DNA of 64,000 bases. Origin: Eremomyces bilateralis CBS 781.70. Lineage: Eukaryota. This document shows positions 16,958 to 51,790 of this stretch, piece by piece. The notes under the pieces were generated by a model. It saw only the letters and a list, made by a program, of their open reading frames with translations. It made no database searches and was not told the DNA's origin. Numbering within the stretch: the stretch's first letter is position 1; each line of letters starts with the position of its first letter. The stretch lies in assembly GCA_010015585.1 (NCBI GenBank), contig ML975150.1, one strand, 5' to 3'. The position numbers were made by a program, and so were the translations under genes.

Positions 16958-18189
16958 ATCTAAGGCAGCAAACCGAGTGGTCGGTCGTGTTGTCAGAGCG
17001 GACGTCAACAGTGTGGAATTTCTGAGATATCGAAGGACAAGCCTAATAGTGGGATCAATGTGATGGACGGTTTAATTTGTCTTGGGAGGCAGCAGGGTGA
17101 TTTTGAATTGCAAGGTGGGGTGTCAGGTAAAGCGTTTGCTGTGGGACTCATACCTTTATACTTCAACGACCGGTCAACGGCAACCTACCTACTGCAAGGT
17201 TGAGCTGTTCGGACGAATGACAAGAGTGTAAGGTCACGAGACTGTTGTGGGCGTAGAGTGAGATGGTCACGAGTAGTAGACGAGTAATAGACGAGCCAAG
17301 TACGGAATAATCGAAACTCTTGCAAAATTTGTATGGACGCCAGATGATGAGATTTGGGAAAAATAACGAGATGGCGAATAACATCATACGGGGAAATTGG
17401 GTGGGATCCAGAAGTTGATGCAATATAGATAAAGGGTTGTTAAGCAGTCCTATGGCCATTAAATATCATATTTCTAACTGTTCATTCTGTAACTAGAGTT
17501 ATAAAACTGTTTATCGCGTTATGAAGCAGAGGATCAATCTCCAGATCTGCCTCCATGCGAGTAAAGCGCTGGCGAGGTCGCGCCCATCAGCGTGAACCCT
17601 CCCTATACCAGAATTCAGCCTCTGTACAGCCATCGCCTATCGAGAAAACGATTGAAGAACGAATATCCATACTTGCAACGACACCAGAGAAAGAGTTATG
17701 CTCGGTACTGCAAGAGCTGGTCAAGGCCTGTCTGATACGAAAGAACATCAAATACCAGCATGATCTTATCTTCCATGGTTTGTAGCGACTCCTGGGTGGT
17801 CGGCTCCCACGTATCAACCGGGTTCGGGCCCTTCGACGAATTGATATTCACCATGGGGATACTATTGTCTCTGCTAAGACTGGTTTTGGGAAGAGCATTA
17901 TCTTCCATGCTATCCCACTCTTTATTGGCAGAATTGTCATCCAGTTGATTCCTTTAAGCAAGCTTGAAGAGGAGCAGAAGAGATCAATTGAACAGTTACC
18001 GGAGGCCAGGGGGCACCATTGCCGCCTGAGTCCCAACTGAGATAAACACATATTATAATTACAAATTAGTATAACTATGTGCAGGGTTGGTGAAGAAGTG
18101 GATAGTTGAGACTTCGGTGGGGCGGACAAAAGGCATTCAGTTACCACTTCATGATGCCGATACCAGTCAGTTCTATGTGCTTTGCAACC

Positions 18190-23865: not shown

Positions 23866-26800
23866 TTAGAATACCAAGAAATATCTCTTAAGACTATCGT
23901 CCAGAGCGGCATCCTCGTCCGAGTGATTGAGAGAAATTTTGAGATACCTTGTCGCTGATCTCAACGCCAGCTTCGGTACAATCGTCGATTGCGCTCTTGA
24001 AATCGACGAGCATATCTTCTGGTAACTTCGCGGTATCGTAGGCGAGGTCGTGGAAGCGTTGACGCGCTGCATGTTCCTTAAACACGCCCCCGAGCCGATA
24101 TTGCTTATCCAGAGCATTACACAGGACCTGAAGCCGAACCTTGAGGACCACTGAGTGTCGTATGACGTATCCGACGCGTACGGCGTCCGTACTCGATACT
24201 GATTCGTCTCTCTCTGGCTTCTCAACAAAGCCCTCCAGTCCTTGAATTGTGAGCAATTCCACGATAGACCTGCGCTATTCCGTATAATGAGCGCCAGAGG
24301 GCTGAAGCTACTCTTCTTTGGGCGAGATATTGATGAGGTTCTTCTTGGAATCCATCGATAGTACGGTTATCAGCGAGTCGGCAAAGCCGGGCTTATCATA
24401 GTCTGTTGAACTGAGAGTGCCGCAAGAAGTGCTCAAAGTTCTCTATGGTCCCCTCGATTTCCGGACGGATGGTCCCCATACCGACGAAGTTACCCTCGCT
24501 AGGGAGTCGAAGGCCTTAAGTCCCCTCTATGTTGCCCGGAAGATATGATCCTTCCATAAGAGGGAAGGGTCAAGCCAGACTCCCAGTACCCGGAGGGATG
24601 TAACCAATTCAGTTTGGTGTCCTTATATCTAGGTCGTAGACCGGAGATCAGCGGAAAGATTGCGTTTCTTAGTAAAGTGGATAATCTAGTACTTATCCGG
24701 GGCAAATTTAGCCCCGAACCGTGACGCCCATTCCAGGCAAGTATCGTGGGCCGCAGTTAGTCGTTGGCAGTTAGCTGCTGCCGTATCTCCCCAGGTGACA
24801 AGTGTAGTATCATCAACGAACCCGAACCCGAGCACGTTACCCTGAACATCCTTAAACTGATGCAGCAGGTCAGATATGAATAGGATAAACAGCGCGGGTG
24901 ATAGGGTAGAGCCTTGCGGGATCCCTGTCTCCGTGTCGAACCAGCGGCTCTTAAAGTCCGAGAAGAGAATCTTTGTTCGCCGTCCGGTTAAGAAAGATGC
25001 GATCATCTGGACAATCCATTTGGGGTATCCCATCCGACGAAGGACCCAGAGCAGCCGGGGGTGAGAGACGTTATCAAAAGCTCCAGCAAGGTCAAGCCCA
25101 AGTACAGAGACCACAGACATCTTTGCGTGCTACGCCGTCTGTATAGTCCCGGTAAGGAGTTCTAGGGCGGAGAGAGTGGATCTCTCCTTTCGAGCTCCCA
25201 TTTGGTTCCAGGGAATCAGATCTCGTGTTTCCGCTTCAGTGATCAGTCGATCTGCGAGGATTTTATCGATTAGCTTTGTAACCGTGTTTTTAAGAGCAAT
25301 AGGGCGGTAGCTGCTTGGAAGTGAGTAGTCCTTTTTCTTGTCCTTCCTTAGTACCACCGTGGTAGATTCCTTTAGAACTGCTGGCAGCTTCCCGCTTCGG
25401 AAGAGGGGGGTGACCGTCCGGGTTAGGTCTACGGCTAGGATATCAGAGAGGGCTTTCAGTACCTCGTTCGGGATCATATCAGGCCCGGGGGCCTTCTGGT
25501 TCGGTAGCCGGCGGATAATCCGGGTGATCTCATCTGGGGTGACCTCTTGCCCGATATCGAATCGTGGAAACTGTTCGTTGGTTATGTCTTGGAGGTCAGC
25601 GGCACCGCTCCGTGGGAAGAACTTTGTAGCAAGGATCTCTGCTTTCCCTTGGTTGTCTCCCGTCGGGGGATCATTCTCCGTGCGCCTAAGTGGTGGGATA
25701 GCTGTAAGCCCACCGGGTTGCCCAGCGGTCTTCTGGCTCTACTTATTCAGTCTCCAGAGCCCTCGGTTGTATATAGTCCGGGTGGTTCTCGTCTTCAGTA
25801 AGTGTCTGGACGAGTTTCCTCCATCTCGTCCGGCCGCCGCTATGCATCTTCCTCCTCAGGGCATTCCTGGTATTTCCACTCTCGTTCGTCGTCCGGGTCC
25901 TAGGTCCGTTGGAGCCGGCGTCGGGCCTGGCGGGCGCCAGCCAGGAACTCTGCAGCCTGTGGTGACCACTCCGGTCTAGACCAGTCACAAGGCCGCGCTC
26001 GTTTACAGTGCTTGTCCAAGGTGCCGTAAAGAAGTCTGATAAGGTTGTCAATCGCAGTATGGGGTTCTGGCACGTACCATTGAGAACTAGAGACATCTTC
26101 CCGGATTTCTTCCCACGGGGCATCCTTCAGTATGAACCTTGGGCTCGTCTGTTGTGAGGGGACCTTGGCGTCCAGCTGGATCTCGATTGGAAAGTGGTCC
26201 TTTGTAGTAGACCACTCCGGCCGTGGGTGGTAAAGGAGGATCCGTGAGACGATCTCCGGCGAGGCGAAGGCTAGGTCAATGACCGACTGGCTCTGGTTCC
26301 GCTGCCACGTTATTACCCCTTGCTCGTTAAGGAGCTGGAGGTCAGCTTGCTCGGTTTGAAGGAGTAGGTGGTCTGCCTTTGGTTCCTTGGGGTTCCGGTT
26401 CCACCCCAGGCTGTGTAATGGCAGTTAAAGTCCCCTAGGAGGATGACATTCTCTTGGCCAATTTCGCATAGAATTTCCGCGATCTCCGGCCACTTCTCAA
26501 GCTGTGGCTGGCCTATATGCCCTGGTGGGTTATATACGTTAACGAGGTTGAGGGGTCCATCACGCGTCATAACGCGGATCCATTCGATGTAGTCGGAGGC
26601 TCGCTTTGGTTCCCAAGCTGTAAGAAGGATCTTATCGTGGATAAAGAAGACGACCCGTATACCGTAGTATATAGGTCGGCTTGGGCGAAAGTTCTTCGGT
26701 ATATAGGTGACTGTTGGCTTAGTTTCGGCGACCATCGGTTCCTGAATTGCAAGTATAGGAAGCCGGGTAGGATCAATCGAGTCGAAGGTAGCCCTAGCCT

Positions 26801-28400
26801 TATCGTTGTTCGCATTACCGCAGTTGTATTAGAGGATGCCAGTCCCTATCATTGAGTACTAGGGGTATTGTCCTTTCCGGTAGGTGTCGTAAAGGTAGGA
26901 ATACTAATGCCGAACATGAAGTCGTTCGGCTGACTAGCCGAGAGCTGGAGCCGCTGCTACCCTGGGGCTCGGGCAGCCACCGTGGTTCCTGAGGGCCTCC
27001 CAGGTCCTGCCCTCTTCCGCTTCTGGGAGTGCTCAACGAGGGTGTATCCCTCGTCGACGTGGCGGACCTGGTGGGTTGTGACGTTTAGGTTTTGGTTTTG
27101 GCTTTGGACAGCGACGGTAGCCTCATTGAGGCGGTTTTCTGTGGCTCGCTGGCCAACTGCGAAGGATTTATATGCCGCACAACTTCTGGTCATCCAGGCA
27201 AAGTGCCCCGGTTCCTTGCACCCTGCGCACCTTGCCTCTTGAAGGTCTTGTATTATACATCCCCTTGTAGGGTGCTGTTTTGCGCAGCGCCCACAGGTGT
27301 CACTATCCGCGTTACAAACGGACTGCGTGTGGCCCCATTTCCAGCATCGGAAGCACTAGACCGCCCGGAGAGTAACGTCCCATAGTTTGACTGGGAGCCA
27401 TAGGGCGCTATAGAGGAAGCCGTCCTTGATAAGCCGCGTCACGTCGGTATCGTTAGCTACCTCGATAATAACTAATCCCTTCGTCTGGGATCCCGCCTTC
27501 CGGATGGCCGCCAGCTTCTCTTTTTTGTAGAGCCAGGAGACTCGTTCAATTTTGACAGTGTTTTGGTTCGACATCTGTCTCGCCCATTCGGTGTTCCCCT
27601 CACTTTCACCGGTTGTGATCTGTGTGTTAATCGGGATACCCATTACCATGAGTAGTTTGGGACGACGGATCAGCTTGACGCCGTCATCCCCAGCGATTCC
27701 AGTAGCGATAATCTGGTCCCGTCGGGTAGTCGTGAGAACCACGACAGATATTTTACCAGCTGCCCTGTGGTGTGGGATAAGCGCTTTCGCGTCTGGGATT
27801 ACCTTCTTGATTCTCTGTAGTTTCTCTTCCGTCGTCTCTTCTACGGCCCCTGCCATTTCAGAGAGACGCACTTCAACGACCGCTTTGGTCTTCCCTCCTG
27901 CGGCGATCTCGCTCCAGGTTGGTGCCTTGGTGGTTAGGGCCACGGCTGGGCGACCGCGGTCTTTCGCGATTCCAGCCTCAATACGTCCAAGTCGCTCCAA
28001 TATTTGACCCATCGCTGGGTCCCGGGCGGGTGTTCCCGCCTGCTCCTTTTCCATACTCTTTCTCTGTGCCAGCTCCGGAATGAGCCGGAGAACGGGCGTT
28101 AGGTGAGCCTCCAGGACTCCACAGAGCGACTCCGCTCCAGCCCATCCACGGCAGCTCTCCAACGCGAATTTTATATGATGTTCCATGATTTAGAGCGTCC
28201 GCCCCTCATCCATCCGTCCAGTTTGTTCTCCCACTCCGTTGCGGGTGTTGGGTCGTGGGTGGTCCGCCTGCTGGAGACGCGTCGGGGACACGTCTTTGGC
28301 CTGCGGGCCCTTCCCCCTCGTGCGCCCTTCAACCATGATAGTTGAGAAGGCTGCAATAGTTGATTATAGGTGAATGAAGTGTGTAGAATCGATTACGACC
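23866..28400 (-). mobile_element. Degenerate non-LTR retrotransposon (Tad-like LINE): gag-like ORF1 with CCHC knuckles, AP endonuclease, reverse transcriptase
   Basis: ORF1 ~28186-26950 with CFRCWKWGH...C. Endonuclease NVYNPP and LLGDFNCH. RT YRPIAL, LDLAGAFDNV, GIPQGSTLSPALF, GFVDD and FAPDK. Many in-frame stops; boundaries approximate, no TSD found. Confidence 0.93.
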
Positions 28401-28617: not shown

Positions 28618-30378
28618 CTACAAAATTCCAAACATATTCTTTAACGCCTCGAAGTTCTCTACTCTCTCACGGCTAAGCGAGACAGCCGCCTTTTTCCTGT
28701 TTGCGCCGTTTTGAAAGACAAACGAGAGCTGCCCAACATGGATCCATTCCAGCGCCTCAAAAACGACAGCATACTTCTCGGCATGCCCAGCCATACTCCG
28801 GCGATGCAATGTCTCCCAAAGAGCGTGTGTATGATTCAAGGGGGAATCATCTCCCAGGTTCTCGTCTGGAAATTGCTGCATGAGTTCATCTTGATCTAGT
28901 ATACGGAAAGAGTAATACGCGTCAATATCTTCGCCGGTTGCCCCGTTATTAACTCGGTACGAGTCTCGGGTGATAGCGAGTCTTTTTAGTTTGCGCAATG
29001 GAAATAGGGTGGTCCGGATAGCATCATGGTCGATCAACCAGTCGTGTCTCCATCCAGCCTGCTGGCCGGAACTGATATGTAGCTGCTCTAGCGAGACAAG
29101 AGACGAGAGAGCAGCGAGTGAAGAGACTGGGACCGTGTTTCCATCCCACATCAAGGAAAGGGTTTTGAGATTGAGAAATGTTGCGAGGACAGGGATGACG
29201 CGTTCTATGAGAGAGGCCGAGCAGCTGTAATAAATGCCGAATGCGGTCAATTGAGTGTTTTGTTCCAAGGCCTGAAGTGATGCTGTTTCTGGAATATCAA
29301 AGCCGGTCCAGATGAGGGTCTGAAGTGACTTTAGACATCCGACGTGGTCCAAGCACTCTCGTGTAACCGGGTAGCTGAAGTCTACAGCTAAAGTATGCAA
29401 TCGATGGCTTCGCAAGAGACTTCGCAATGTCGGCTCACTTAGCTCGGTGCTGTCCCCAAGCCAAAGAAAGCGGAGACAAGTGAACTCGGCAGTAAAGGAT
29501 ATTGGCTTGTCTTGACTCTGAAGAAAGGATCTATGGCTAAACTTCAGGCTCTGAAGACTGGAGGAGCACGTCCGAAAGAAGCTATCCCAGAGAGAGGATG
29601 AGTCGGCTGAATCGAGTCCATAATGGAAATTGAAGTCCCAGACGATATCAATGTCGGCACTCAACAGCGGCCACTCAGCTTCGCCATCAATCTGGACAGT
29701 GACGTATTCAGACTCGATGCTGCCACGTAGTTTGAGGTGTTTGACTGTCGAAGTAGCCAGGCTATTGAGGAGGTGGTTGTCGACGGTCGTACCATTTGAC
29801 CAGTCCAGGACTCCAAAATGCGGTAATGAAGAAATAACGAGTATCAAGCTAGGATCATAGACATGCCTCATTCTGGTTGTCATATTCCCAACAGCTAACC
29901 CCCATTGGTCAATACTAAAAGTACCGCCGAGCCCATCATTGCGTACATTATTCGCCTCATCATCCCGGGATGCCTTGGGTTGCATTGCACGGATCTCCTT
30001 CCAATAGTGGCCCGAATCCGTCTGTATGCGGCGGACACACGCACCCAATGACGGCTGATGCGTCAGGCGATTCTTTGATATGAGTCGCTCAGTAGCTTCG
30101 CGAATGAGGATGCCGAGAACGCAGGATGAACGAGGGCTATAGTCAATGACAACACTACAGAACTGGCAAGAGCGTGCCAGCTGGCGACAATCCGAATTGA
30201 CAAGTGCAAGGGAGGCCAAAGCCTCCCTGTCCGTGTTGATGTATGTCATAACCACTGATAGGATCTCATCTGGTAGATGCAGGAGGTAACTGTTCTGTGC
30301 TGCGATCGGTCTTCCTTCCATCACTTGACCAAGTGTCAGCGGTAAAGGCGCAAAATCCTTGGACAATGGGCAATCCAT
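28618..30378 (-). CDS. F-box / LRR-like protein (distinct family from paralogs 1-4)
   Basis: 586-aa intronless ORF with LLHLPDEILSVV...LASLALVNSDCRQLARS and LxxLxL repeats. Confidence 0.75.
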   Translation of the reverse strand: MDCPLSKDFAPLPLTLGQVMEGRPIAAQNSYLLHLPDEILSVVMTYINTDREALASLALVNSDCRQLARSCQFCSVVIDYSPRSSCVLGILIREATERLISKNRLTHQPSLGACVRRIQTDSGHYWKEIRAMQPKASRDDEANNVRNDGLGGTFSIDQWGLAVGNMTTRMRHVYDPSLILVISSLPHFGVLDWSNGTTVDNHLLNSLATSTVKHLKLRGSIESEYVTVQIDGEAEWPLLSADIDIVWDFNFHYGLDSADSSSLWDSFFRTCSSSLQSLKFSHRSFLQSQDKPISFTAEFTCLRFLWLGDSTELSEPTLRSLLRSHRLHTLAVDFSYPVTRECLDHVGCLKSLQTLIWTGFDIPETASLQALEQNTQLTAFGIYYSCSASLIERVIPVLATFLNLKTLSLMWDGNTVPVSSLAALSSLVSLEQLHISSGQQAGWRHDWLIDHDAIRTTLFPLRKLKRLAITRDSYRVNNGATGEDIDAYYSFRILDQDELMQQFPDENLGDDSPLNHTHALWETLHRRSMAGHAEKYAVVFEALEWIHVGQLSFVFQNGANRKKAAVSLSRERVENFEALKNMFGIL

Positions 30379-31253
30379 GATAGTAAGCCACCACGAAAGG
30401 AGGTAGTTGGCTGAGGATGGTTCTGAAGGGGAATGGAAGACTCGATGTTCGCACGTGTTGAGGCCTTGATACCTCAGGTCTTTGATATTGCACCGGGGCT
30501 CGAGGTTGCGGGCTCAACTGTGGAGATGAGGCGTTGCAGACCGTTGGTGATGTAGGGTCGGCACGTAGCGAATTGAGTGATAGAGAATTGTGCTTGGTTG
30601 AAGGTCGCCTAGCTTATAAGGCAATCCGGGTCAAATTCTGCTGTCTAGAAGGTTTATTGAGCGTGAAGTTCTTTGAGAGCTGCTCGCAGTTGGCGACCGC
30701 CGCGCTTCGCGTAAGTGTTGAGGAAGGTCTGTATGCGATGTACTCGGTTTATTACTTCCTGAGGGATGCCGCTGTTTACGACTTCCATGAGTTGCCGGGA
30801 GAGTTACCCATCTAGGAAGTGAGAGTACGCGTTCGTGGAAGGATCACTGCGGCGGCTTGTTGACAGATGAATCACACGACAAATCGCCCTGATTCTTGAG
30901 GTTGAGACATGGATCTCAAGCAATTGAGCTGTTCTCAACCGTTCAGGTAGTGGATTGCGTCAATCCTTAATGTTTGAGGCCTTTGGGGAATCGAGGGTTT
31001 GGTCTCAGCAAGGCCTGTAACTATGAACACCTTGAGGACACGGAGTGCCTTTGAGCAAGATAATTCGTTAGATTAAAGCTACAGAAAGACAGAAGGGAGG
31101 TGAGATGTGAGATATGAGGGCTGTGCCTGGAGGAACGAAGTTCCGTCAGGTCTTTGTGGTCGCACGAGGGGAGACTTACCTCAGCAAGCTCAGGCCATAT
31201 ATCAGAGGAGTCTAGCCTTTTTTGGACAGTCACGTTACTTATACTACTCCTCT

Positions 31254-31927
31254 GTTTACCTCAGCAAGCTCAGGCCATTGTGGTAGTGCCTGAGGCAACG
31301 AACCGCGCTATACCTAATTGGTATGGTTCTCTACCAAATAGCCTGAGGATCCTGTCATTGATTTTTGGCCTGAGTTAAGATCGTTTGTATGAGAGCAATT
31401 TAATCACTTCAACCTCGTTTTCCTCCACAACGAGCTATCACACAGTAAAATTGACATGTTCAACCGAATCCTCTATCGTTTCTTGACAACCCAGTGGAAT
31501 TTGGACGATGCCAGATCGAACCTCCTCTCGGCGCAGCGTACAACTGAACCCAACGTCTCCAGAGGTGCTTGAACTGCGGTGGTTGGTTAACGATTCTGAC
31601 GCAGTCTGGCTTCTTACATATCAGCGTTTTTTGCAAGACACAAGCATGGGGAGTAGAAAAAATTCAAATTCTAGATAAAGTATACCTTGCTGCACAGCCC
31701 AGTGAATTTAAGGGCAATTATAATAAGTCTTCGTGTTGTTATTGAAGAATATGCAAAAGTGAGGTTTCCAAAATCGTGAAAAACACATGTAAATTATCGA
31801 ACAGTCAGTATGCGTCATTGACAGGATCCTCAGGCTATTTGTTCGAGAACTGCATTTACCGATTAGGTATAGTGTGGTTAGTTGCCTCAGGCACGACCAC
31901 AAATAGCCTGAGCTTGCTGAGGTAAAC
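31254..31927. mobile_element. MITE-like element B (~670 bp) with ~110-bp imperfect terminal inverted repeats
   Basis: gtttacctcagcaagctcaggcca...gcctgaggcaac...ctatacctaat...aaatagcctgaggatcctgtca at 31254-~31361 matches the reverse complement of ~31815-31927. An extra partial terminus lies at ~31177-31198. Confidence 0.8.
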
Positions 31928-32062: not shown

Positions 32063-32526
32063 CCCACAACCAAGGGAACAGGCCGCAGGCCTGGGACCAT
32101 AACATTCCTTTACTTTATTCCACGATTCAAACCCCCCAACTCATATCAAACATACAAAAGTCGAAAATATTGTAATTCAACTAATTGATTTTATTTTAAT
32201 AAGCTAAGCTGATTTTATAAACTGCATTAGTTAATAATCTTGCCATGAGTCGTATATCTGCAGGGCCAGCCCGGCCAGGGAACTGGGCATTCGCATAGAA
32301 CAAGCAACTCACACAATAGACAATACAACAACTTTGCTGCTGTCACTAAATCACCTGACTCCCAACTATTTTAGCACATCCCAGTGCGACACAAATCTCA
32401 AAACCTTGGGGACAAATCTCACCAGCCTTCCGTGACAACGCTTGTGATCAACACAATCCACAATCATCTTCATTCGAGTACTGCAATCAACTTCTTCGTG
32501 ACAGGTCCCTTGAGATAATCATCAAA

Positions 32527-35493
32527 TCAAATCAATAGCCTGGCCTCCCTGTCTGTAAGTCTATCATATCTTAGCCGCATATCCAGCTCAGAATGTACAG
32601 AACACTTACCCAGGTACCGCATCATCTGGTATTCCAGATCGCTCTTGAAAGAATCAACATTGCTAACGATGATGTTAACATCCTCCTCAGTGAGCTTTCC
32701 GGTTCCATCCTTGCGAGCCATAGCTTGGCCCATGGCGGAAGAGACAATATTCCGCAGCTGTCTCCCGTCGAATCCTTTCTTTGCGATATCGCTGCGGAAC
32801 GTTTTCTTGATCCTCTCGTAGTCCTCGACAGCCCCTTTGATTTTATACTGATCCAAAAATGATTCGAAGATTTGAATTGCTTGCTCCTTCTCCAGGTCAG
32901 TGTATTTGATTGCAATGTGGATTCTTGACTGGACCGCAACGTCGAACAACGCAATTTGATTCGTCGTGAGTATTAGGATGCCTATTTTATGTCAATAATG
33001 TGTCGGAGAATATAACACGTGCCAATCGATAAGGGGCTACTTACCCTGATAGTACTCAAGTACTCGAAGAAACACTGGACGGTAGAGCCAGGTTCAGCTT
33101 ATGAGCGATTCAAGTCTGAGCGTTAGGGTCTCACCTGATACCAAAGCATTCCTTTCTGTCGTCGGGCCTTGGTGACCCATTCCACGGCTCTGGACGAAGA
33201 CATCTACCTCATCTCTAGTCCATCATGTTAAGAGACATCTTCGCCTCATAGCGCGTGCGCAACTTACATGAGAAGAATGGCTTTCCACCTGGTCGCAAGA
33301 TCAAAAATCCTATGCAGGTTGGATTCTACATTCTCTGCCTGAGTTCCAACATCCCCGACCCCAATACTAAACAGTGGCTTTCCCGCGGCCGCTGCTAAGG
33401 TCTCCGCTGACACAACGGTTAGCTCTATACGGTGATGAGGTAGGTCGGATACGGGGCACATGTAAAGGTCAACCCTACCGGTTGAAGTTTTCCCAACTCC
33501 GGGTTTGCCTGCAGTCGTCGTCAGTGACATCATCAGCCGTGCTTATTCGCAGTTACTGACCGTATAGAAGTATCACTAGGCCTTGCCCTTTATCGGCTAC
33601 TAGGTCGGCCAGTTGGTCTTGGCCATGGGTGGTGACCAAATTTAGCAAAAGCTGCTTTGTTTCCTGCCCGTTGAGGCTGGCGTCTCCCTTCAGATGGAGT
33701 CTCTTTTCGAATGCATTACCATTGTCAGAAACGGGCTGGAGATTGTCGATCTCAAGCTGTGCCCACCGCTTATCGCGGAGGATATATCCCAGGACCCTTG
33801 GTGGCAAAAGCATGTATTGGAGATCGACCCATTCCTTTTCGTCCTCCTCTGCAGTCTCATCGAACGCCCGATGGTACGTCCTCGCCAAATCCCTGTTGCC
33901 ATTGCAGCGCGTGCAAGTGCACTCATATGACAATTCATATATCGGTATGGCTCCAACATAGCCTTCCTGAGGACCATGTTGGTAGTATGATTCGAAATCT
34001 ACCATGACATCGCTGTTCACCTGCAAGTGCGTTAGTGTTGAGCTCCAACGAGAACCTATCGACTTTGAATCAGTGATTACCAGTGCCTCTTTGGACAAGG
34101 CGTGAGCATCGTCGCTGTCGCTGTCAAGGCCAAGCACTGATCTGAAAAAAGTAACAGCTGGCTTAGCCTGAGGTCTCTAGGGATCAAGGACTATCAGTAT
34201 TCTATGATCGGTGCATTTTTGGGAATGGTGCTCGCCTTAGGTTTATCCCTCCCACGGAATCCCACCCTATCCACAATCGCTCTTCCTTGGTATTTGAAGC
34301 GGCGTTCCCCGGCGTTGGCAGTGCAGTATTTTCGGTAACGTCGACCTCGCTCGATCAACCTGCTCTCGATCCTGTCCCTATCCTCGGCCATAGAAAGCGG
34401 AAAATATAGCAAAGCGGTGATCGGCTTAGATCCGTTAAAAGTAGGAAAGGCTAGGCGTAGAAATCGCCGCCGGAAATCCCGTCCATTCCAATCGTACGTC
34501 CAGCATTCAAGCTCCCACTCTTTCGAGTCCGAGTTCGGCCACGGACCACTATTGTCCTTCACGATGAACAGTTGGTCCTGATTAAGAAATGGGCGACCAT
34601 AGATGATAGTTCCCGGGGCGAAAATCGTCCACAGCGTGTCGTAGGTGATGTTATTCGACCTGATAACGGCCTCTCGGCTGCGTAGGAAGTCATTCAGTCG
34701 ACTATCACCTGCATTTTGCCGTACGCGATCAAGAACCATGCCGAGCGCCCTCCGAGCGGTCTTGTCGTTTTCGGTTGAACCCTCCTTGTCTGCTTCAGTC
34801 TTAAGGCGATCCCAATTCAGAACCAGCGGCTCGAAGGGAGAGTCAAGCGTTACGCATTCGCCGTAGAACTCATGCGTGGGATGATGCGAGAGGACCCTTT
34901 TGAGTAACTCAAGAAGGTCCTTATTGAATATCTCCAGCTGACCACGGTTTTCCGTCTCATCCTCATTGTCCTTAGAATCGTAGATAAATATTCTAATGAT
35001 AGCAGCTTCTTGAGGACTGTCGTTCTTGGTCTCTTGAGATTTTTCTTCCTCGAAGTCTTTTCGCTCACCAGTTTTCGAGGCTCGATCACGTCTGTTGGTG
35101 ACGAGTCGGACGTGCCATGGTGGTTTAGGTTCTTCATCGGATCCTGCTCCTGGCTATTATGAGGACAGAATCAGCTTGTGATGTCGCTGGCCAACATGAC
35201 ACTCAGTTACCCACTTTCTCCTCTTTGTTGGTAGACTCCGCAGCTTCGGTCGCCTCGTCTAAGCACAAATACAGGTTAGCTCTTATCATCATGTCAAGTT
35301 TGACGATGCAGCTTGCTGACGCGACGCAATACCTTTTGCCTTGAATTTCGCCTCGAGCTCCGAAACCCGAGCCAACAGTTCTCGAACTTGATTCTGCAGT
35401 GCAACTACGTCAACCTGATATGCATTAGCTGATTGTAGGGTGGGATAGTTGGGAGTAGTGTACAACCTGCGGGTCTTCGTCAGAGATGACCAT
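32527..35493 (-). CDS. Fungal AAA+ ATPase (DUF7025-type N-terminal region + AAA + lid), multi-exon, intact
   Basis: Spliced model starts MVISDEDPQ|VDVVALQNQVRELLARVSELEAKFK. It has SPFEPLVLNW, ITYDTLWTIFAPG, LLPPRVLGY, Walker A VILLYG-PGVGKTST, Walker B ILLMDEVDVF, and FLRVLEYYQGILILTTNQIALFDVAVQSRIH. Confidence 0.9.
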
Positions 35494-36153
35494 GATGATG
35501 GGTACTCGGTGATCGGAGAATTGGACCCAAGATCTGAGGCCGCTATGAGGTGTTCGTGGCCGGGTCTCTATTAAATACCTATGACATGGAGCCTTGTGGA
35601 CGAAGAAGAACATATGGGAAACCCCATCCCCCATCCCGTACTAAGCAGCCCATTGGTCAGATATTTCCGAGGCAGTAGGCTGTGAATATACGAAGTCCAG
35701 CATTGTTGTCATGCGTCTTCAAGCCATGGATTGTACTTTGACTGGCAAATAAGACGACGTTCGGGTTGCAGTGCCGCAAGCTCCAACGCAAGGCTGCGTA
35801 GCCGACTCCAAATTTGTCTTTGGAGGAACTGGTGGTGGTGGAAATGTGAAAGTCATTGGATGTCCGTAGATGCAGAGGGTGGTTCCCATACGCCAACAAA
35901 ACACGACCCTCCCCACCTGGACATCGCCCAGCCTTATGGGAATGTTGCCTAGACTGATGGGGAATGAGACGAGAGTAAGAAAAGGAGATGAAGGCCGACT
36001 GAATGATACTATATGTTGCGAGAGTTCTCTCTTTCAGTCCCAATCCACCTTCGATGTCGAGTCCAACAAGGCTGAGGTTGGCATACTCTACCTTCAGTCT
36101 CCCAGATGCTGCAGAGAAGGCGACAATCTGTCGTTCCGGCTGCCTTCTGTCCA

Positions 36154-37996
36154 ATGCCCACGGCTGAGCTATCGGACGCCGAAAGGTACGAAATTCAGAT
36201 CCCCCAGCAAATTGAATTGGCTAAGGATGTATAAGGCGGAAAATTCAGCAGATACAAGAAAAACAGGATCTATTTCATCAAAAGTTGAAACGCAGAGGAC
36301 TTGGCCGATACGAAGAAAAGGCCATCGCTTGTTCCAGCGCCGAAGAGTTTGCAGGATTTTGGACCGAATTTTCCGATCATGCCCAAGTCAAATTTGAGAA
36401 TCGGCACATTGACGGCTGGAGACGACGAACAAGAAAGTTTCAGAGTTTTGCAGAGGGCGTTCGAACTTTCATGGACGAAATAAAACCAGTATTGGATGCT
36501 TGCAGGGAAATGGGCAAGCCTTACTCTGGGTTTGCAATTGGTACCATGGCAATTCTTTTCGTGGTAAGTATATCCAACCTCAAATGTGATTCTGATGGGT
36601 TGTATTAGTAACGCTCGGCGTTCTTAGGTTGGTTCGAATAAGCATCGGATAGAAAATCAACTTCTATCAACTTTGACAGGAATAAAAGACCGTCTTCCCG
36701 GAATCAAAATACTGGCTGAGTGTTGTGGAATGGGCACTGAGTATGAAATGGACCTGAAACTGAAGATGCAGCTTGCCCATTGGGCCTTCACTGACCTTGC
36801 CATTGAAATGGTAGGGTACTATATTGACCGTGGCTATCGTAAGTTCATTTGCCAGTATCTGTACGCAATATGTGTAGGTTCGGTCATCACTGACAATATA
36901 CAGGGAGGTGGATGATAGCAATCTTTAGATCTGGCAAGTTCAAGGACATGATAGACACGGTAAATACTAGTGTTATCGCGGTTCGTTCGCGATGCGAAGA
37001 GTTAGCCATCTTAAACATCAACCAAATCAAGGAGACCAACGACGGTATGTCATTCAATGTACAGCCTGGGTTGTAAGCTGGAGTAGAGTTCTCATTAACA
37101 TATTTCTAGAGCTCCTAAAGAAAATGCACAGTAAGTAAGATGATGTCCTAAACTTTCGACTGTAATTGCTGATCACCTCATCTCTAGGATACCAGCTTGG
37201 CCAAGGGAGTGATTATCTCATGCGCCTTCTGGAGCCCCTTGGAATCCCCACTTGGTCCCTGTCGGGGCATCACAAGCGATTAGCGGATTACCAGCGCAGT
37301 ATCGAAGCAGAGCAGTTCTACGAAGGTTCGTATGAGAACATGACAGGAATGAGTCTGGAGAGATTCCACCAACAGGAGACATCCTTCATTCAGTGGTCTC
37401 AGAGTAGCGATGCCGCCATGCTCATTCTCACCGGAGCCAACAACTGTAACATCACCGAACTCAAGCAACACTGTTGGATATCGCCCGTAGCAATTGATAT
37501 GGCCCGAAAATATCGAGATCAGGGTATCACGCACGCCTTTTACCCATTCCAAGAGCGACGGGCAACCTCGATTAGCACAGCGGTTCCCATCATCGTCACC
37601 CAGCTACTGGGCTTCAAGCTCAGGGAACTTGACGGTCACCAAATGGATATCATAGCACACGCGCGCGCGTTTTCCCGAACTACTGATGCCGACGAGGAGA
37701 CCAGAGCTACCGCGCTAAGTCGACTGCTCAATGACACCATCAAGATTTTCCAGCCCGAGGAGAGGGTCGTGCTAATAATCGACCGCGTGGATATTTGCGA
37801 CGAATCGGAAAGGGATGGCTTTCTTCGCATGCTGGTTTCCATGCTAAATGAAGCGTGCTGTACGTTGAAGATCCTGCTGGTGACCCAGTCAGTGGTTGAT
37901 TGGAGACCGAACGTGAGGGAATTGCGATCTAGGTTGAGAACGTCGGCTGGTTTACATCAAGCGTTGAAAGTTCAGCGATTTCGTTCGGAGTATTGA
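36154..37996 (+). CDS. NACHT/STAND-like protein: helical N-terminal domain + degenerate P-loop domain, no C-terminal sensor repeats
   Basis: Introns 36186-36235, 36564-36627, 36839-36903, ~37025-37109 and ~37132-37187 join into one open frame. FIQWSQSSDAAMLILTG (pre-P-loop), VVLIIDRVDIC (Walker B-like) and LKILLVT (sensor-1-like) are present; GKS/T is absent. Confidence 0.7.
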
Positions 37997-38519
37997 TTGG
38001 CGGATGCTTCTTAGCTACAATATGTACTGACTCTGAGGTGACAAGGCGGATCATGACCGATGAAGCCGATACAAATGATACAGGTAGAGGAAGGAAATGG
38101 CCAAGATATCCAAATGAACAGTGCGATCCAGTCAATCAATGTGTTTTGGGAGGCTAGGGGTGGGAGCGCCAGGGTGAGGCCTACAAGAGATCCACGACTC
38201 GCAGGTAACCGGACACCCAGGGGAAGAAGTCATGACTGGCCTGATGGTAAAGAAATACTTTTGGCCGGGGATGACGACCGATATCCGCAGATTCGTATGG
38301 AATTGCCACCCATCCCTGGGGGAAATAGATCTAGGATTTGAGCGCGGATAGAGCGGTTTATGTGATTATAACTAACTAAGTTAGCCCAGGTAACTTCATT
38401 AGTTCATCTCTCTCGAGTGATAGACTAGATATTCGAACCCTTTCTCATTGACTTTAAAGTGTTACCTATTATGTTAAGCATGTCTTAATTGAACACTGGG
38501 GCATGCTCCCATTACAACC

Positions 38520-40016
38520 ATGCCTACCTTGTTGTTTCTCCCTACCGAGTTGTTGATCAAGGTTATCAGGGATATCGACCACCAGGATCCTGAAGTACCA
38601 GCCCCTGTACTGGCCGTTCGGTTGGCATGCCGTAAATTCCGGGATATCTGCTGGATGCCCGAGACGTTCCCCAACATGTTCTTCCAGAATATTATATTCA
38701 TGTTGTCATACGATAGCTTAAAGGAGCTCATCGATATTTCCGCCACCCAATTCTCAGACCTACCGTGACCCACCTTCAGATTGCTGTCACTCGTCTTGAA
38801 GTCGATACTGGTGTTGTGCGCGATATTCCTGAAGATCAAATCTTCCGTTCGTACAGTGGTGAAGATGTGTTGCTGTTGACACAGGCTCTGTCCGGGCTAC
38901 CGAACTGCAAATCCATCATGATCAAAGATGGCATGGACAATCTAGGGCGACCCCTGTCGGCTGTCGCATTTCGCGGGGGTGATCATTAAGCACGATAGGT
39001 GCTTGAGCTCAGTTACTGTAGAGTCATAACGCAAATTGGTATTAACGATTCACATTGTCTAGAAAGGAGATCTAGCTAGTAAGTTAGATGAAAATAACTT
39101 AGTTAAATATATAGGAGAAGACTTGAGAGTCCTGATTAGGCTTAGCCTAGGGGGTAGAGGGTAGTGAAAGGAATGTTAAGTGGTAGTAGAAACGAATAGG
39201 GGCATCTTGCGACAACCCCTACTTAAGGGAAAGATGGAGAAGTGGTTGGACGTGGCAGCGAAAGAACACATTCTCGATCCCACAAGATACGCGATCCAAT
39301 CCATCGTCAGTGAGGCTGTCAGCGACTGCTTTCGCACCGTTCTATGCGCCCTCAGTAACAGCAGTGTCCAGCTGGAGTGGCTCCTGGTTTATTTGGATTC
39401 TTTCAATTATAAAACTGGCCTCCTTGTTGAAAATCCTGTCTTCCCTAACCGAATCTCGTCAGTGATAAATGAGAGATCATTTCTGGACCTTACGGAATTA
39501 CACATGGACCTAGACGCGTACATTCGTTCTCAGTCCATTTACCAAGCTCTTCCAAAATTCCTTTCGCTCGCCCCTAAACTGGAAAGTCTGAGCCTTTCCT
39601 CTTCGGCCGCATCCTTGTATACGTCCTGGGTTATTCGCGAGCTTTCCCAGCTACAGTTTCCGTGTCTGAAATCTTTAGAGCTGAATGCAGTTTCTGCCAA
39701 GCAAGAGTCCCTGTCACGTCTACTTCTCAAGCACCGGAACACGTTTCGCAAAGTTGCGCTACTTGATGTTTGTTTGTGCAATCCGGAGGACTTAAACGCT
39801 CGAGGGGATCCCAACGAATGGCACGTCATATTACAAGCTCTGCTAGAGTTAGGGTTGGAATGCTTTTCCATTTTTAGACCTTGTATGCCGCACTATGGCG
39901 TTCTATTCGTGTTTAACGATGGGAATGTAGACCCAAATCTTTCTAGAAAAACACCTGACGAGGTTCGAAAGGCAATAAATAGGGTCTGGAGGACCAAGCT
40001 TAGGAGGGAAGCTTAG
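38520..40016 (+). pseudogene. F-box-like paralog 3, disrupted (stop at 38766, AT-rich interruption ~38990-39200)
   Basis: MPTLLFLPTELLIKV...RLACRKFRDICW...YDSLKELIDIS; DVLLLTQALSGLPNCKSI; later LSLAPKLESLSL and LLKHRNTFRKVAL match paralogs 1-2. Confidence 0.75.
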
Positions 40017-47939: not shown

Positions 47940-49096
47940 TTGTCGATTGGGTGCGGGCTTTGCGTGGTGAATGAGTCGTGGACTCTATACTGACTGCCTT
48001 GAGCAGATATTGAGACTAGCATACGAAAATCCCGCCCAAAAATTCGAGACAGGGACACCACACACCCGGGTTTAGCGAAGACATATTGCCGCTCCCTGGA
48101 TCACCTTACCTTCTCTGTACATGGTTTATGTGGCTTTTTCGGTGACTTTGGACCTATAGCGGAAAGATCGATACCATGATGTTGGAGTGGCGGCATAATT
48201 AGCTCGGCGTTGCTGGCCATTTTGCAGTGCTTTCGAGGCTTTTGATTGAATCAAGTGTCGATTGGCATGATGCGGTTCAAAAAGAGGAAGACTTCTGGTT
48301 GAGGCGTATGAAAGATAGCTAGGGAAACAAAGACGGACGAAAATGGGAAGGTTAATGTGGACAGAGAAACGTCTCCGGCTTCTCCATACATAGAAGGATT
48401 CTGGAAAGTCAGTACAATAGCTGCTACAGTTCTGATTATATAAACTAAAGCTTTATTTGAGTCGCGATGCAAGTATAGTACGGAATACATATCTGCATTT
48501 GATAGTTTGGCTTGGGTTCATGATCAAATCAAAACCCATACAATAGCACAATATTATGTTTACACTTTTACATCATCCAGGCGTGCCAGGTAAATAAACC
48601 ACAAATCTGGTAAACGATCGAATCCAAAACCAAGGTAGAGAATCCATGCTAATTCTACAAGTGTGCCCTGAGTATTACCTGTGACTTCATCACTGTTCCT
48701 CGTTACGCTGGTGCCCAGCTTCACACGCCACACGAGCTCTCCTGCCACCATGGATCTACACATGGAATAGAACCTCGACAATTGATACATTGTTCAAAGC
48801 TACACTTCAACAGACAACATCTTTGTTTGAATTCCACTCTGAAGGTTGGGCGATATTTGACACGGAATTTGGTTGAGATCGGACTTATATCCATACAATA
48901 AAATCGGGTCCCATGATCACACCCATCCTACATCAGTTCATATCTCACCGACCTGCTGTCTTAACCTGAATCCTTCACCTCCGGCCATTCCCCTGAAACA
49001 CTCTCCAATCACATCTACCATCCTCCCTTCTTTAACAATTACCCTTTCCAGTCCTCCACTATCTTGAATCCACCCTCACCCTTCCCCACCGCCAAA

Positions 49097-51790
49097 ATGC
49101 TCCCAGGCTACCGCGGCAACCGCCCCCCCCCTTCCTCCTCCAACTCCCGCCCCTCCGAATCCCAACCCTTCCTCGACCGCCCCGATCCTCGCTACGGCGC
49201 CCAACAACCTCCTCCCGGTCGCTACAACAACGGCCCTTCTCACGATCCAAATGCCCCCTATCGCGACCACAGTCCCGCGCCCACGTACCGCTCCCGCGAC
49301 CCCCGCCAAGACCCTTACAACGAATACCAGAACCACCCCCCCAGCCGCTCCGGCGGCGGCGGCGGCGGCGGCATGACGCTCCGCCCCGTGAAATCCCCCG
49401 GAGGCAACGAAGCGGCCTTCTCGAACATCGCGCTCGTCTCCCCGGCGGACTTCGGCGGCGCCCCCGGCAAAGGCGCGCGGACGTACATCCTTCTCAACGG
49501 GCGATACGTGCTGACGGCGGAGCCGAGCGAGGCATGTCAGCCGGGGACGGTGGGGCTGACGGATGCGCAGCGGACGTGGGCGGAGGTGAGCATTGGGCCG
49601 AACGACACGGTGGGGGTGGAGCGGTATGATGTGCGGAGTCAGGGAGCGCCGTTGTTGGCGAGTGCGGATGTGGAGATTGGGTTTGCGACGGCGAAGAAGC
49701 AGCATGAGAATCCGTATGATCAGGATGAGTTGACGCAGGCAGTTATTAAGGTGAGTGGTGGCGATGGAGAGGCTACGGAGATATGGGAGTGGGCTAACTT
49801 GTGGTAGTCGTTCCGCGATCAGTTCCTGGCGCCTGGACAGGGCCTTTTGCTGAACCATAAGAACATTCCGCTAAGGATCTTGGTGAGAGGTGTGCAGCTT
49901 CTGGATATATCCACCGGAGACGCGAAGGACGAGAAAGGAGGTGAAAAAGCGGCTGATCCGCGAAAGCGGGGGATCGTGAATCCAAGCACGCAATTCAACT
50001 TCTTCAAAGAGGATGCCACTATCCTAAACCTCAAGGCCTCCATGTCGCGTCCCGCCGCGAACTCCGTACTCCAGCCCAATTTCGAGTTTGGAAACCTACA
50101 GGTTGGTGGCTTGGACAAGGAACTGGGCAACATCTTCCGGCGCGCGTTTTCGTCACGAATCTTCCCGCAAGGGGTGATGGAGGCCCTGGGGATCACTCAC
50201 GTCAAAGGTATCCTCCTTTACGGACCTCCAGGGACGGGAAAAACCCTGCTGGCCCGCGAACTCGGGCGTTCGTTAAACGCGCACAGTCCCAAGATCGTCA
50301 ACGGTCCGGAGATCTTGAACTCTTACGTCGGCAAGTCCGAAGAGAACGTACGCAACCTGTTCGTCGACGCGGAGAAGGAATGGAAGGAGAAGAAGTCCGA
50401 GAGCAAGACGCATCTGATCATCTTCGACGAGATTGACGCTATCTGCAAGCAGCGAGGCTCGGGCGTCGGCGGCGGCACGGGTGTTGGCGACAGCATCGTC
50501 AACCAGCTCCTCTCCAAGATGGACGGTGTCGATCAGCTCAACAACATCCTCGTCGTCGGCATGACCAATCGCCGCGATCTCCTCGACGACGCGCTCCTCC
50601 GCCCCGGCCGCTTCGACGTGCAGGTGGAGATCGGCCTGCCGAGCGAAGACGGCCGCGAACAGATCCTCGAGATCCTCACCCGCAGCGCGGTGAAAAGTGG
50701 CCGCTTCGCCGACGACATCTCCCTCAAGGAGCTCGCCCGCATCACCAAGAACTTCTCCGGTGCCGAGCTCGCCGCCCTCTACCGCGCCGCCGGCTCCATC
50801 GCCATGACCCGCCACGTGCGCTTCGGCCGTGGCGAGTCCGGCACCGTCGAGCGCCCGGAGGACCTAACCCTCACGATGGCGGACTTCCTGCAAGCGTTCG
50901 AGAACGACGTGAAGCCCGCGCACGGGCTGCAGGTTGACGAGCTGGACGCGAGGATCCGCTATGGCATCATCCCGTACTCGCCGCGCATCAAGGAGATCCT
51001 GACCAAGGGACGGCGGGCGCTGGCGGCATGCTTCAATGCGGAGTCAGGGAAGGATACCCAGGTGCGGCCGACATGTATCTTGCTACACGGGCTTGCTGGA
51101 GCTGGGACGTCGGCGCTCGCGAGTCGCATGGCGCTGGACGCCGATGTGCCGCTGGTGAAGTTCGTGGGGCCGACGAATTTCATTGGATATGGAGCGATGC
51201 AGACGGTTGGGGGGCTACAGAAGGCGTTCAATGACGCGGCACGGAGCAAGCAGAGTATCATCGTCCTAGATGATATCGAAGGGTTGATCGAGTGGTTTGA
51301 TGTGGGCATGCGATACAGCACGCAGGTATTGGCGGCACTTATGCGCCTGCTCACCGAATTGTTACCAAAGGTTCGTGCTATCTAATCTATCTCGCACTCA
51401 GTTCTCCGTCAGCTAACATTCGACCCTCAGGGCCACCGCCTCGCCGTCATCGGCACCACCCGCACCCCCGAGCCCCTCAAGCAGCTTCGCCTTTGGCAAT
51501 TCTTCCAAACCAAGATCGACGTCCCCTACGTGAGTGGGGTCAACGAGCTCGCGCAGGTGCTGCGCCATTCCGGGAAGTTCTCCGACCGGTCGCAACAGCT
51601 GATTCACGCGACGCTGCAAGATCAGTTGCGCGGGAACCCGTTGTCGGTGGGGATCAGAGATGTGTTCCACGCGGTGGAGATGGCGAGCGATGCGGAGCCG
51701 CATGTATTTGCGGATGTGTTGCTGAGTAGGGTGCAGGAGGATAATCCTTTCTTGATGCCGCCGCCGCCGGAGGAGGAGAGTATGGAATAG
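49097..51790 (+). CDS. SEC18: Vesicle-fusing AAA ATPase Sec18/NSF
   Basis: GGLDKE...IFRRAFSSRIFP...HVKGILLYGPPGTGKT...PKIVNGPEILN-YVGKSEEN...IIFDEIDAICKQRGS...GMTNRRDLLDDALLRPGR; introns 49751-49807 and 51371-51430. Confidence 0.95.

Follow-up and report, generated by a model that had tools for sequence, protein, structure and literature searches.

We describe a divergent pair of genes in the filamentous ascomycete Eremomyces bilateralis CBS 781.70, located at positions 32,527-37,996 of a 64,000-nt stretch of contig ML975150.1 (hereafter, the window). Gene A (minus strand, 35493-32532) encodes an apparently intact AAA+ ATPase, and gene B (plus strand, 36106-37996) encodes a protein that combines a helical head with a NACHT-like nucleotide-binding domain (NBD) devoid of a P-loop. 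The pair is real, conserved and expressed, and it is new among fungal modules related to NOD-like receptors (NLRs). It is probable that the two genes function jointly, as a unit that has yet to be characterised. As to mechanism, we lean, tentatively, towards a co-inherited and co-expressed two-gene unit in which the AAA+ ATPase controls the NLR-derived partner in trans, a reading that may well be right. Fungi have large repertoires of NLRs, for hardly any of which, to our knowledge, a trigger or mechanism has been established. The pair is a small, intron-mapped and expressed system, the parts of which can be expressed alone or together, so that the question is open to experiment.

The two genes are neighbours in 3 of the 3 species for which the accessions of both are known. 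In Eremomyces, the adjacency of the AAA+ gene (KAF1816127.1) and the partner gene (KAF1816128.1) is visible in the window, which served as the positive control; elsewhere, linkage was read not from DNA but from consecutive GenBank accessions, which denote neighbouring genes by the numbering of annotated records, together with source contigs of the same size. Thus, in Daldinia sp. FL1419, the AAA+ protein KAI8957893.1 (56% identical to the gene A product) and the partner KAI8957894.1 (41% identical to the gene B product) both come from an 86,674-bp contig, and in Hypoxylon sp. CI-4A, OTB07949.1 (59% to gene A) and OTB07950.1 (42% to gene B) both come from a 656,892-bp contig. This count leaves aside four other relatives of the AAA+ protein and more than 10 named relatives of the partner. 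By sequence identity, the divergence of the two families is congruent: the Daldinia and Hypoxylon proteins are 66% (AAA+) and 53% (partner) identical, compared with 56/59% and 41/42%, respectively, relative to Eremomyces, which puts the two Hypoxylaceae nearer to each other than to Eremomyces; the partner evolves faster.

Both genes are transcribed and spliced. A single 4,835-nt contig of run X1 matches the window at 100% identity across 32419-38209, with all 16 introns of the two genes removed; the RNA label of this run is a guess, and we take it as RNA-derived only since the contig lacks every intron. Because the introns are skipped at GT-AG or GC-AG borders, the contig stems from spliced RNA and genes A and B are expressed in the X1 sample. 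The reading frames stay open across the 16 introns, which is beyond chance, so that the two divergent multi-intron genes with intact spliced frames proposed in an earlier note, a reading of the letters of this DNA alone, are borne out, with 11 introns in gene A and 5 in gene B. The gene A introns (ten GT-AG and one GC-AG) were taken from the spliced contig, set to these borders and then translated; for gene B, three introns are listed as joints of the contig, and the last intron agrees with the piece 37188-38209. The contig also crosses the spacer between the genes without a gap (piece 35463-36182), so that the spacer is transcribed, which does not imply a single transcript. This spacer presumably comprises a shared bidirectional promoter and the 5′ untranslated regions of both genes. 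The start codons had been placed 660 bp apart in the earlier note, a figure that holds for an in-frame ATG of gene B at 36154, 16 codons downstream of the deposited start at 36106, from which the spacer measures 612 bp.

By its sequence, gene A is predicted to encode an enzymatically intact, single-ring AAA+ ATPase of the classic clade with a large N-terminal region containing DUF7025. The Walker A, Walker B, sensor-1, Arg-finger and sensor-2 motifs are all conserved in an alignment of nine sequences (A3), and GKPGVGKT, LLIDEVD, LTTN, QSR and DGRQLRN are present in the spliced product, in agreement with the initial reading that Walker A, Walker B and the TTN...SR region are kept. A profile of the nine gene A relatives matched 271 chains in the PDB, including VAT, p97/Cdc48, AFG2 and Vps4 at E values from 6e-18 to 1e-11, which places gene A in the classic clade of AAA+ ATPases. 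DUF7025 (PF22942) reached 84.3 bits with the gene A exon and 82.7 bits with P0002, the deposited protein (cut-off 27), and Pfam AAA (PF00004) scored 53.2 bits on P0002 (cut-off 21.2), whereas AAA_lid_13 stayed below the cut-off on the last large exon of gene A (15.6 vs 27) and exceeded it in the relative P0007 (28.9). Gene A is, by its DUF7025 and AAA scores, a member of the uncharacterised fungal ATPases that combine DUF7025, AAA and AAA_lid_13 (PF22942/PF00004/PF23232). It shares 44-59% identity with its closest relatives along the entire protein, and the Atlas lists 25 look-alike clusters with DUF7025 and AAA at a score of 0.9 or more. Within the N-terminal region, the L/A pattern of the heptad-like helix, a putative coiled coil, appears to be partly kept in alignment A3, the consensus of which reads SDECxCxxC at the cysteine motif ahead of the ATPase.

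The deposited gene A protein (P0002 = KAF1816127.1, 773 amino acids (aa), annotated as 'P-loop containing nucleoside triphosphate hydrolase protein') deviates from the RNA-supported 768-aa product at three places. A 72-nt in-frame intron (33407-33478) straight after Walker A is kept in the deposited model; given that it is skipped in the RNA-type contig and that its 24 aa are missing from 7 of the 7 homologues covering the site, this insertion is false. Furthermore, P0002 splices 34177-34235 differently, with the RNA-type contig showing a GC-AG intron there. When P0002 alone was compared with the PDB using phmmer, 0 matches were obtained, which is probably explained by the false insertion after Walker A. 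A retained intron in a deposited AAA+ protein can thus hide the ATPase domain from searches.

Among bacterial defence systems, the ATPase module of gene A relatives matches two PADLOC profiles: IetA, from the IetAS pair (E 8e-16), and TRIP13, which in CBASS is paired with HORMA (E 1.3e-14). Both systems likewise consist of an ATPase and a non-ATPase partner gene, but the likeness is confined to the AAA module, p97 and VAT match about as well, and PADLOC and PHROG profiles yielded no match to gene B; no membership is claimed for gene A. As a separate observation, some Atlas look-alikes of P0004, a gene A relative (AAA + DUF7025), are reported to stem chiefly from tailed phages (Uroviricota) and bacteria, and the ATPase part is matched by PHROG 29662, 3757 and 10401 with E values of 4e-28 to 2.5e-25, better than by the best solved structures (VAT/p97, ~1e-17). 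Relatives of the fungal DUF7025-AAA family may exist among prokaryotes or viruses, which we regard as a lead only; viral contigs scanned with the fungal gene A-family alignment gave no match.

The spliced translation of gene B from ATG 36106 is identical to the deposited protein P0001 (KAF1816128.1, 'hypothetical protein P152DRAFT_454367'). The AlphaFold2 (AF2) model of this protein, based on 150 relatives (mean predicted local distance difference test (pLDDT) 89.7), predicts an all-helical region at aa 24-304 followed by a five-stranded alpha/beta domain, with the chain stopping 7 residues past strand 5 and thus lacking a winged helix, arm or repeats. At the N-terminus lies a DUF7708 head, characteristic of NLRs in fungi, a point that the earlier note missed. 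Folded alone, the alpha/beta domain reached a pLDDT of 95.3 and a predicted template modelling (pTM) score of 0.92, and a Foldseek search with this domain-only model returned 31 PDB matches at E<=1e-3, those listed including subunits of the origin recognition complex (ORC), MuB, TnsC and Sir3, with MalT just above the threshold (E 2.2e-3). The full 529-aa model had no Foldseek match at E<=1e-3, and the gene B family profile compared with the PDB by sequence gave only coiled-coil noise (E>0.1). Rows for MLA13 and ZAR1 that ran across head and NBD were set aside as evidence, their root-mean-square deviation being 23-24 A. On the predicted structure, the core is confirmed to adopt the nucleotide-binding fold of AAA+ and STAND (signal transduction ATPases with numerous domains) proteins. 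The best structural neighbours of the core include catalytically inert AAA+ subunits that sit within active-ATPase assemblies (ORC2-5 and Sir3; 7jpq_D, 3te6_B), which we offer as an analogy only; the core was also compared with the STAND NBDs of Avs3 (8dgc_A), Apaf-1 (1z6t_A) and a STAND-TPR protein (6mfv_A). Since structure does not part NACHT from ORC/Cdc6, it is the Pfam profile that supports the assignment to NACHT: NPHP3_N, which represents the N-terminal half of NACHT domains in fungi, covers aa 323-492 of P0001 with 33.6 bits (cut-off 24.8), and the Pfam NACHT profile itself remains under its cut-off (12.5 vs 26.7 bits).

The motifs that had suggested a NACHT-like partner (W-x-x-S...MLILTG-ANNCN, LIIDRVD and KILLVT) are all present in the gene B product. 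In the model, strand 337-344 leads into a 14-residue loop, 345-358 (ANNCNITELKQHCW), that replaces GxxxxGK[ST], and the next helix starts at S359-P360, so that W357 and S359 are predicted to occupy the place of the Lys-Ser/Thr of a P-loop. Compared with the NACHT Walker B, hhhhD[GAS]hDE (PLoS Genet 2025, PMC12258605), LIIDRVDIC shows a hydrophobic strand with the Asp and, at +3, an acidic residue but has Arg in place of [GAS], followed by Cys; this Arg, R460, is invariant among 41 full-length sequences.

Loss of the P-loop is a trait of the whole partner family rather than of one gene. An exhaustive HMMER search with the last exon of gene B retrieved 184 representative clusters (50% identity) at E<=1e-3, 75 of them at E<=1e-10, revealing a large family of the short form that the earlier note had likewise overlooked. 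A canonical Walker A is absent from all 148 representatives that extend over the loop, three stray GK[ST] strings lying out of P-loop register; instead, W.S is found at this site in 146 and CW.SP in 109 of the 148, and DR.D is present in 131 of the 145 representatives covering the Walker B strand (121 as DR.D.C). Such family-wide conservation of the replacement loop means that the dead P-loop, correctly recognised from the window, is not a product of local decay. Among the best 150 of the 184 relatives, none is longer than 584 aa, and full-length members measure about 480-600 aa, typically 500-570 aa, with C-termini that agree to within a few residues, making the short form the rule in this family rather than the outcome of truncation by the integrase relic that follows gene B. 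Of 41 full-length members, all gave a match to DUF7708 and 26 a match to NPHP3_N (E<=1e-3); repeat families had no match in any of the 41, and the Pfam scan of P0001 likewise gave no repeat family, as expected from the claim that the partner is free of WD, ANK and TPR repeats. The conserved motifs indicate that gene B is a degenerate form under selection and not a decaying one. These results bring to notice a sizeable family of P-loop-less, NLR-like proteins.

Named ascomycete members of the partner family come from Daldinia, Hypoxylon, Xylaria, Biscogniauxia, Pseudomassariella, Microdochium, Lasiodiplodia, Diplodia, Aulographum, Bogoriella and Pseudocercospora; the species lists for both families are far from complete and represent lower bounds. 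In a FastTree phylogeny of 46 partner-family rows, P0001 falls into a clade of 8 with 100% Shimodaira-Hasegawa-like support, which unites Eremomyces with five Hypoxylaceae, Xylaria curta and Lasiodiplodia, other Dothideomycetes being placed elsewhere in the tree. The Atlas contains 13 clusters with DUF7708 and NPHP3_N, the nearest of which is automatically named 'Fungal STAND N-terminal Goodbye domain'; Pfam Goodbye (PF17109) and NACHT_N found no match in gene B or in its family members scanned. Metagenome contigs scanned with 7 closer gene B sequences yielded one 1,796-bp contig (L001) with no flanks, and genome contigs scanned for gene B relatives yielded none. Two side observations concern individual members. 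P0024 from Lentinula aff. detonsa (527 aa, DUF7708 + NPHP3_N) is the one basidiomycete protein, nested among ascomycete sequences of the family. P0158 (Lasiodiplodia mahajangana) and P0014 (Xylaria curta), which come from short contigs of 28,495 and 4,958 bp, respectively, are 76% identical over the full length, compared with 30-50% between other genera, a likeness that could result from cross-contamination or recent transfer.

Full-length NLRs are 800-1500 aa long, as opposed to about 530 aa in the case of gene B. Gene B shares with full-length fungal NLRs the DUF7708 head and NPHP3_N, in the same order, and keeps the acidic D-x-x-D on the Walker B strand, whereas it lacks the Walker A, the winged helix/arm and the ANK/TPR/WD repeats that these receptors have (PMC4986451, PMC9815663, PMC12258605). 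Recurrent non-canonical P-loops have been noted in fungal NLRs (Dyrka et al. 2014, PMC4986451). A recent census defines NLRs by GxxxxGK[ST] (PMC13449251) and would thus exclude the P-loop-less gene B family by design. The NWD2/HET-S clusters of filamentous ascomycetes (PMC4344463, PMC3321046) likewise place a P-loop ATPase gene next to a gene for a protein with an NLR-type helical head. Unlike those clusters, which signal through a shared amyloid motif, no common segment was found between the products of genes A and B; moreover, NWD2 is itself an NLR next to a separately encoded executioner, whereas gene A is a classic AAA+ ATPase, and the head protein, gene B, carries the dead NBD. Full-text literature searches, which did not extend to supplements such as Table S1 of Dyrka et al., returned no description of the DUF7025 or DUF7708 families or of the pair.

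How might the two proteins work together? Gene B has neither a Walker A loop nor a winged-helix arm nor sensor repeats and is therefore predicted to be incapable of driving an NTP-dependent switch by itself. Under the mechanism that we propose, the AAA+ ATPase would supply ATP-dependent control in trans: gene A would bind gene B, most likely via its own N-terminal region, and either hold gene B apart or assemble its oligomers, and this control of assembly would gate the activity of the helical head. The likeliest setting would be cell death or conflict, in a response such as those that fungal NLRs control, as suggested by DUF7708 heads being typical of NLRs and by the description of Goodbye-like heads as MLKL/HeLo-related bundles, the control of which is open (Wojciechowski et al. 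2022, PMC9815663; PMC12258605). The earlier note had arrived at a candidate immunity or allorecognition module with the AAA+ protein as remodeller of its partner. None of the three outcomes that it named as refuting was seen: Foldseek indicates an AAA+/STAND fold, with NPHP3_N above the cut-off, linkage recurs, and both genes are expressed in spliced form; the remodeller role, physical contact, the direction of control, the activity of the head and the role in immunity are what we infer.

A stricter version of the same idea, which we consider unlikely, is a 'split NLR', in which the switch was deleted from a receptor-like family (at least 184 clusters) and its role was taken over in trans by the co-inherited DUF7025 AAA+ ATPase. 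If true, such a two-component architecture for immunity or cell death would be one so far undescribed in fungi, plants and animals, and it would provide the first function for DUF7025 ATPases and DUF7708 heads.

Several observations weigh against a cooperating pair controlled by the AAA+ ATPase. Adjacency involves two independent lineages only, Daldinia and Hypoxylon both belonging to the Hypoxylaceae, and all three pairs fall inside the single 8-member partner clade, the patchy distribution of which leaves room for joint horizontal transfer. Being inferred from accession order, the adjacency covers neither orientation nor spacing outside Eremomyces. An hhalign comparison of the two family profiles gave a probability of 1%, with no shared docking or amyloid-like motif. 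At the site aligned to the SKYYG pore loop of VAT, gene A relatives have GTQA, GTKA or GDKA, and all 8 sequences covering the site lack an aromatic residue, so that a substrate-threading or unfoldase mode is not supported. The DUF7025-AAA family is large, and most of its members need not have such a partner. With one contig and one depth value, neither co-regulation nor a ranking of the two genes can be shown. As for a role in immunity or allorecognition, the HET gene of the island is 15 kb from the pair and nothing connects the two, and 'Goodbye' as a name for the gene B head is that of an automatic Atlas cluster only.

It is also possible, if somewhat doubtful, that the proteins do not cooperate and the genes are neighbours by descent or through joint, perhaps horizontal, transfer between Xylariales and Eremomyces in an island rich in transposable elements. 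On this view, both belong to accessory families that evolve fast, have a patchy distribution and accumulate in such islands. Indeed, the P0001 clade consists mostly of Xylariales, with the other Dothideomycete members elsewhere, as would fit transfer or heavy loss; the island contains LINE, integrase and MITE-like relics; and this view is further favoured by the two lineages only and by the lack of a motif common to both families. Descent alone, however, sits poorly with gene order being mostly scrambled between fungal classes, and the pairs are still immediate neighbours despite identities of 56-59% (AAA+) and 41-42% (partner), while in Eremomyces the genes lie head to head across a short spacer that is transcribed throughout. 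In addition, both genes keep family-specific conserved motifs.

Another alternative, which strikes us as improbable, is that gene B serves by itself as a decoy for full-length DUF7708-NACHT-repeat NLRs or as their dominant-negative regulator, joining them via the head or NBD core that they have in common so as to block or tune them, the AAA+ ATPase being irrelevant. Truncated NLRs do act as regulators in plants and animals, the head and NBD families of gene B (DUF7708 + NPHP3_N) are the same as those of full-length NLR clusters with Ank and WHD_GPIID in the Atlas, and the family is large and conserved without its catalytic loop. Yet the decoy leaves the conserved AAA+ neighbour unexplained, and the top 150 relatives of the gene B NBD are all short (584 aa at most), so that the core is not close to full-length NLRs. 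Finally, we reject as extremely implausible the view that gene B is the decaying remnant of a full-length NLR cut by a retrotransposon, which draws on the integrase relic 180 bp downstream, right after the stop codon, and on the missing Walker A and repeats, given that many species share the length and C-terminal end, the replaced loop is conserved (W.S in 146/148), the frame is intact over five introns in an expressed gene, and the AF2 model is confident up to the last strand.

The pair lies in an island with relics of transposable elements and a HET gene, as the earlier note had recorded; these neighbours, along with the features of the pair itself, are compiled in Table 1.

Table 1. Features of genes A and B and of their surroundings in the window (CDS, coding sequence; ORF, open reading frame; LINE, long interspersed nuclear element; LTR, long terminal repeat; MITE, miniature inverted-repeat transposable element; LRR, leucine-rich repeat)
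Feature	Position	Strand	Remarks
Gene A CDS	32532..35493	minus	12 exons, 768 aa, RNA-supported; ATG 35493, stop 32534-32532
Gene A exons 1-6, 5'->3'	35493-35467, 35414-35333, 35258-35215, 35153-34236, 34176-34081, 34020-33561	minus	
Gene A exons 7-12, 5'->3'	33508-33479, 33406-33268, 33214-33135, 33074-33045, 32981-32610, 32560-32532	minus	
Gene A heptad-like N-terminal helix, aa 12-36	35334..35408	minus	putative coiled coil, read from the sequence
Gene A DUF7025, about aa 215-307	34386..34664	minus	PF22942
Gene A C-x-C-x-x-C motif, aa 423-428	33904..33921	minus	linker ahead of ATPase
Gene A AAA+ module, aa 537-713	32749..33579	minus	intron-interrupted
Gene A Walker A GKPGVGKT	33561-33486	minus	split by intron 33509-33560
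Gene A in-frame intron after Walker A	33407..33478	minus	72 nt, in next helix; kept in deposited model
Gene A pore-loop-1 position GVGDVGTQAENVES	33362-33321	minus	without aromatic residue
Gene A Walker B LLIDEVD	33275-33202	minus	split by intron 33215-33267
Gene A sensor-1 LTTN	32970-32959	minus	
Gene A Arg-finger QSR	32931-32923	minus	
Gene A sensor-2 DGRQLRN	32769-32749	minus	
Divergent spacer between start codons	35494..36105		612 bp
Gene B CDS	36106..37996	plus	529 aa; stop 37994-37996; alternative ATG 36154
Gene B introns (5)	36186-36235, 36564-36627, 36839-36903, 37045-37109, 37131-37187	plus	
Gene B DUF7708 helical head, aa 108-235	36477..36989	plus	PF24809, 33.4 bits, cut-off 25
Gene B hydrophobic helix GFAIGTMAILFVVG (helix at aa 123-140 in AF2 model)	36528-36633	plus	inside head; spans intron
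Gene B long single helix, aa 216-278 (63 residues)	36930..37240	plus	predicted head-to-NBD link; AF2 model mf8f0656d0e40
Gene B five-stranded alpha/beta core, aa 337-522	37415..37972	plus	AAA+/STAND type
Gene B pseudo-P-loop MLILTG-ANNCNITELKQH-CWISP, aa 338-360	37418..37486	plus	
Gene B Walker-B-like LIIDRVDIC, aa 456-464	37772..37798	plus	strand 3
Gene B KILLVT, aa 488-493	37868..37885	plus	strand 4, sensor-1 position; family consensus K-V-L-x-V
HET-domain ORF	14423-17071	minus	883 aa, long and intact; HET E 5.6e-26
LINE-like element	24689-26828	minus	several broken frames; RVT_1 and endonuclease/exonuclease pieces
F-box + LRR-like ORF, weak	28621-30513	minus	F-box E 0.0075; LRR_14 E 1.8e-4
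MITE-like element	31254-31927		nested inverted repeats; arms 26-46 nt, 89-96% complementary, 453-622 nt apart
Integrase_H2C2 fragment of LTR retrotransposon	38178-38351	plus	isolated; E 9e-13; ~180 bp past gene B stop
LRR_At5g56370-type ORF, weak	38493-40013	plus	E 0.004
Second AAA gene, Cdc48/AFG2 type	48965-51382	plus	unrelated to gene A; CDC48_N, two AAA modules, AAA_lid_3

The F-box/LRR-like ORFs on both sides of the pair may be paralogues into which the pair inserted. At the Integrase_H2C2 site, a second X1 contig differs from the window by G>A, G>T and G>A and probably represents other copies. RNA-type contig depth at the MITE-like element is 200-650, compared with 60 over the gene pair, indicating that this element is either multi-copy or highly transcribed.

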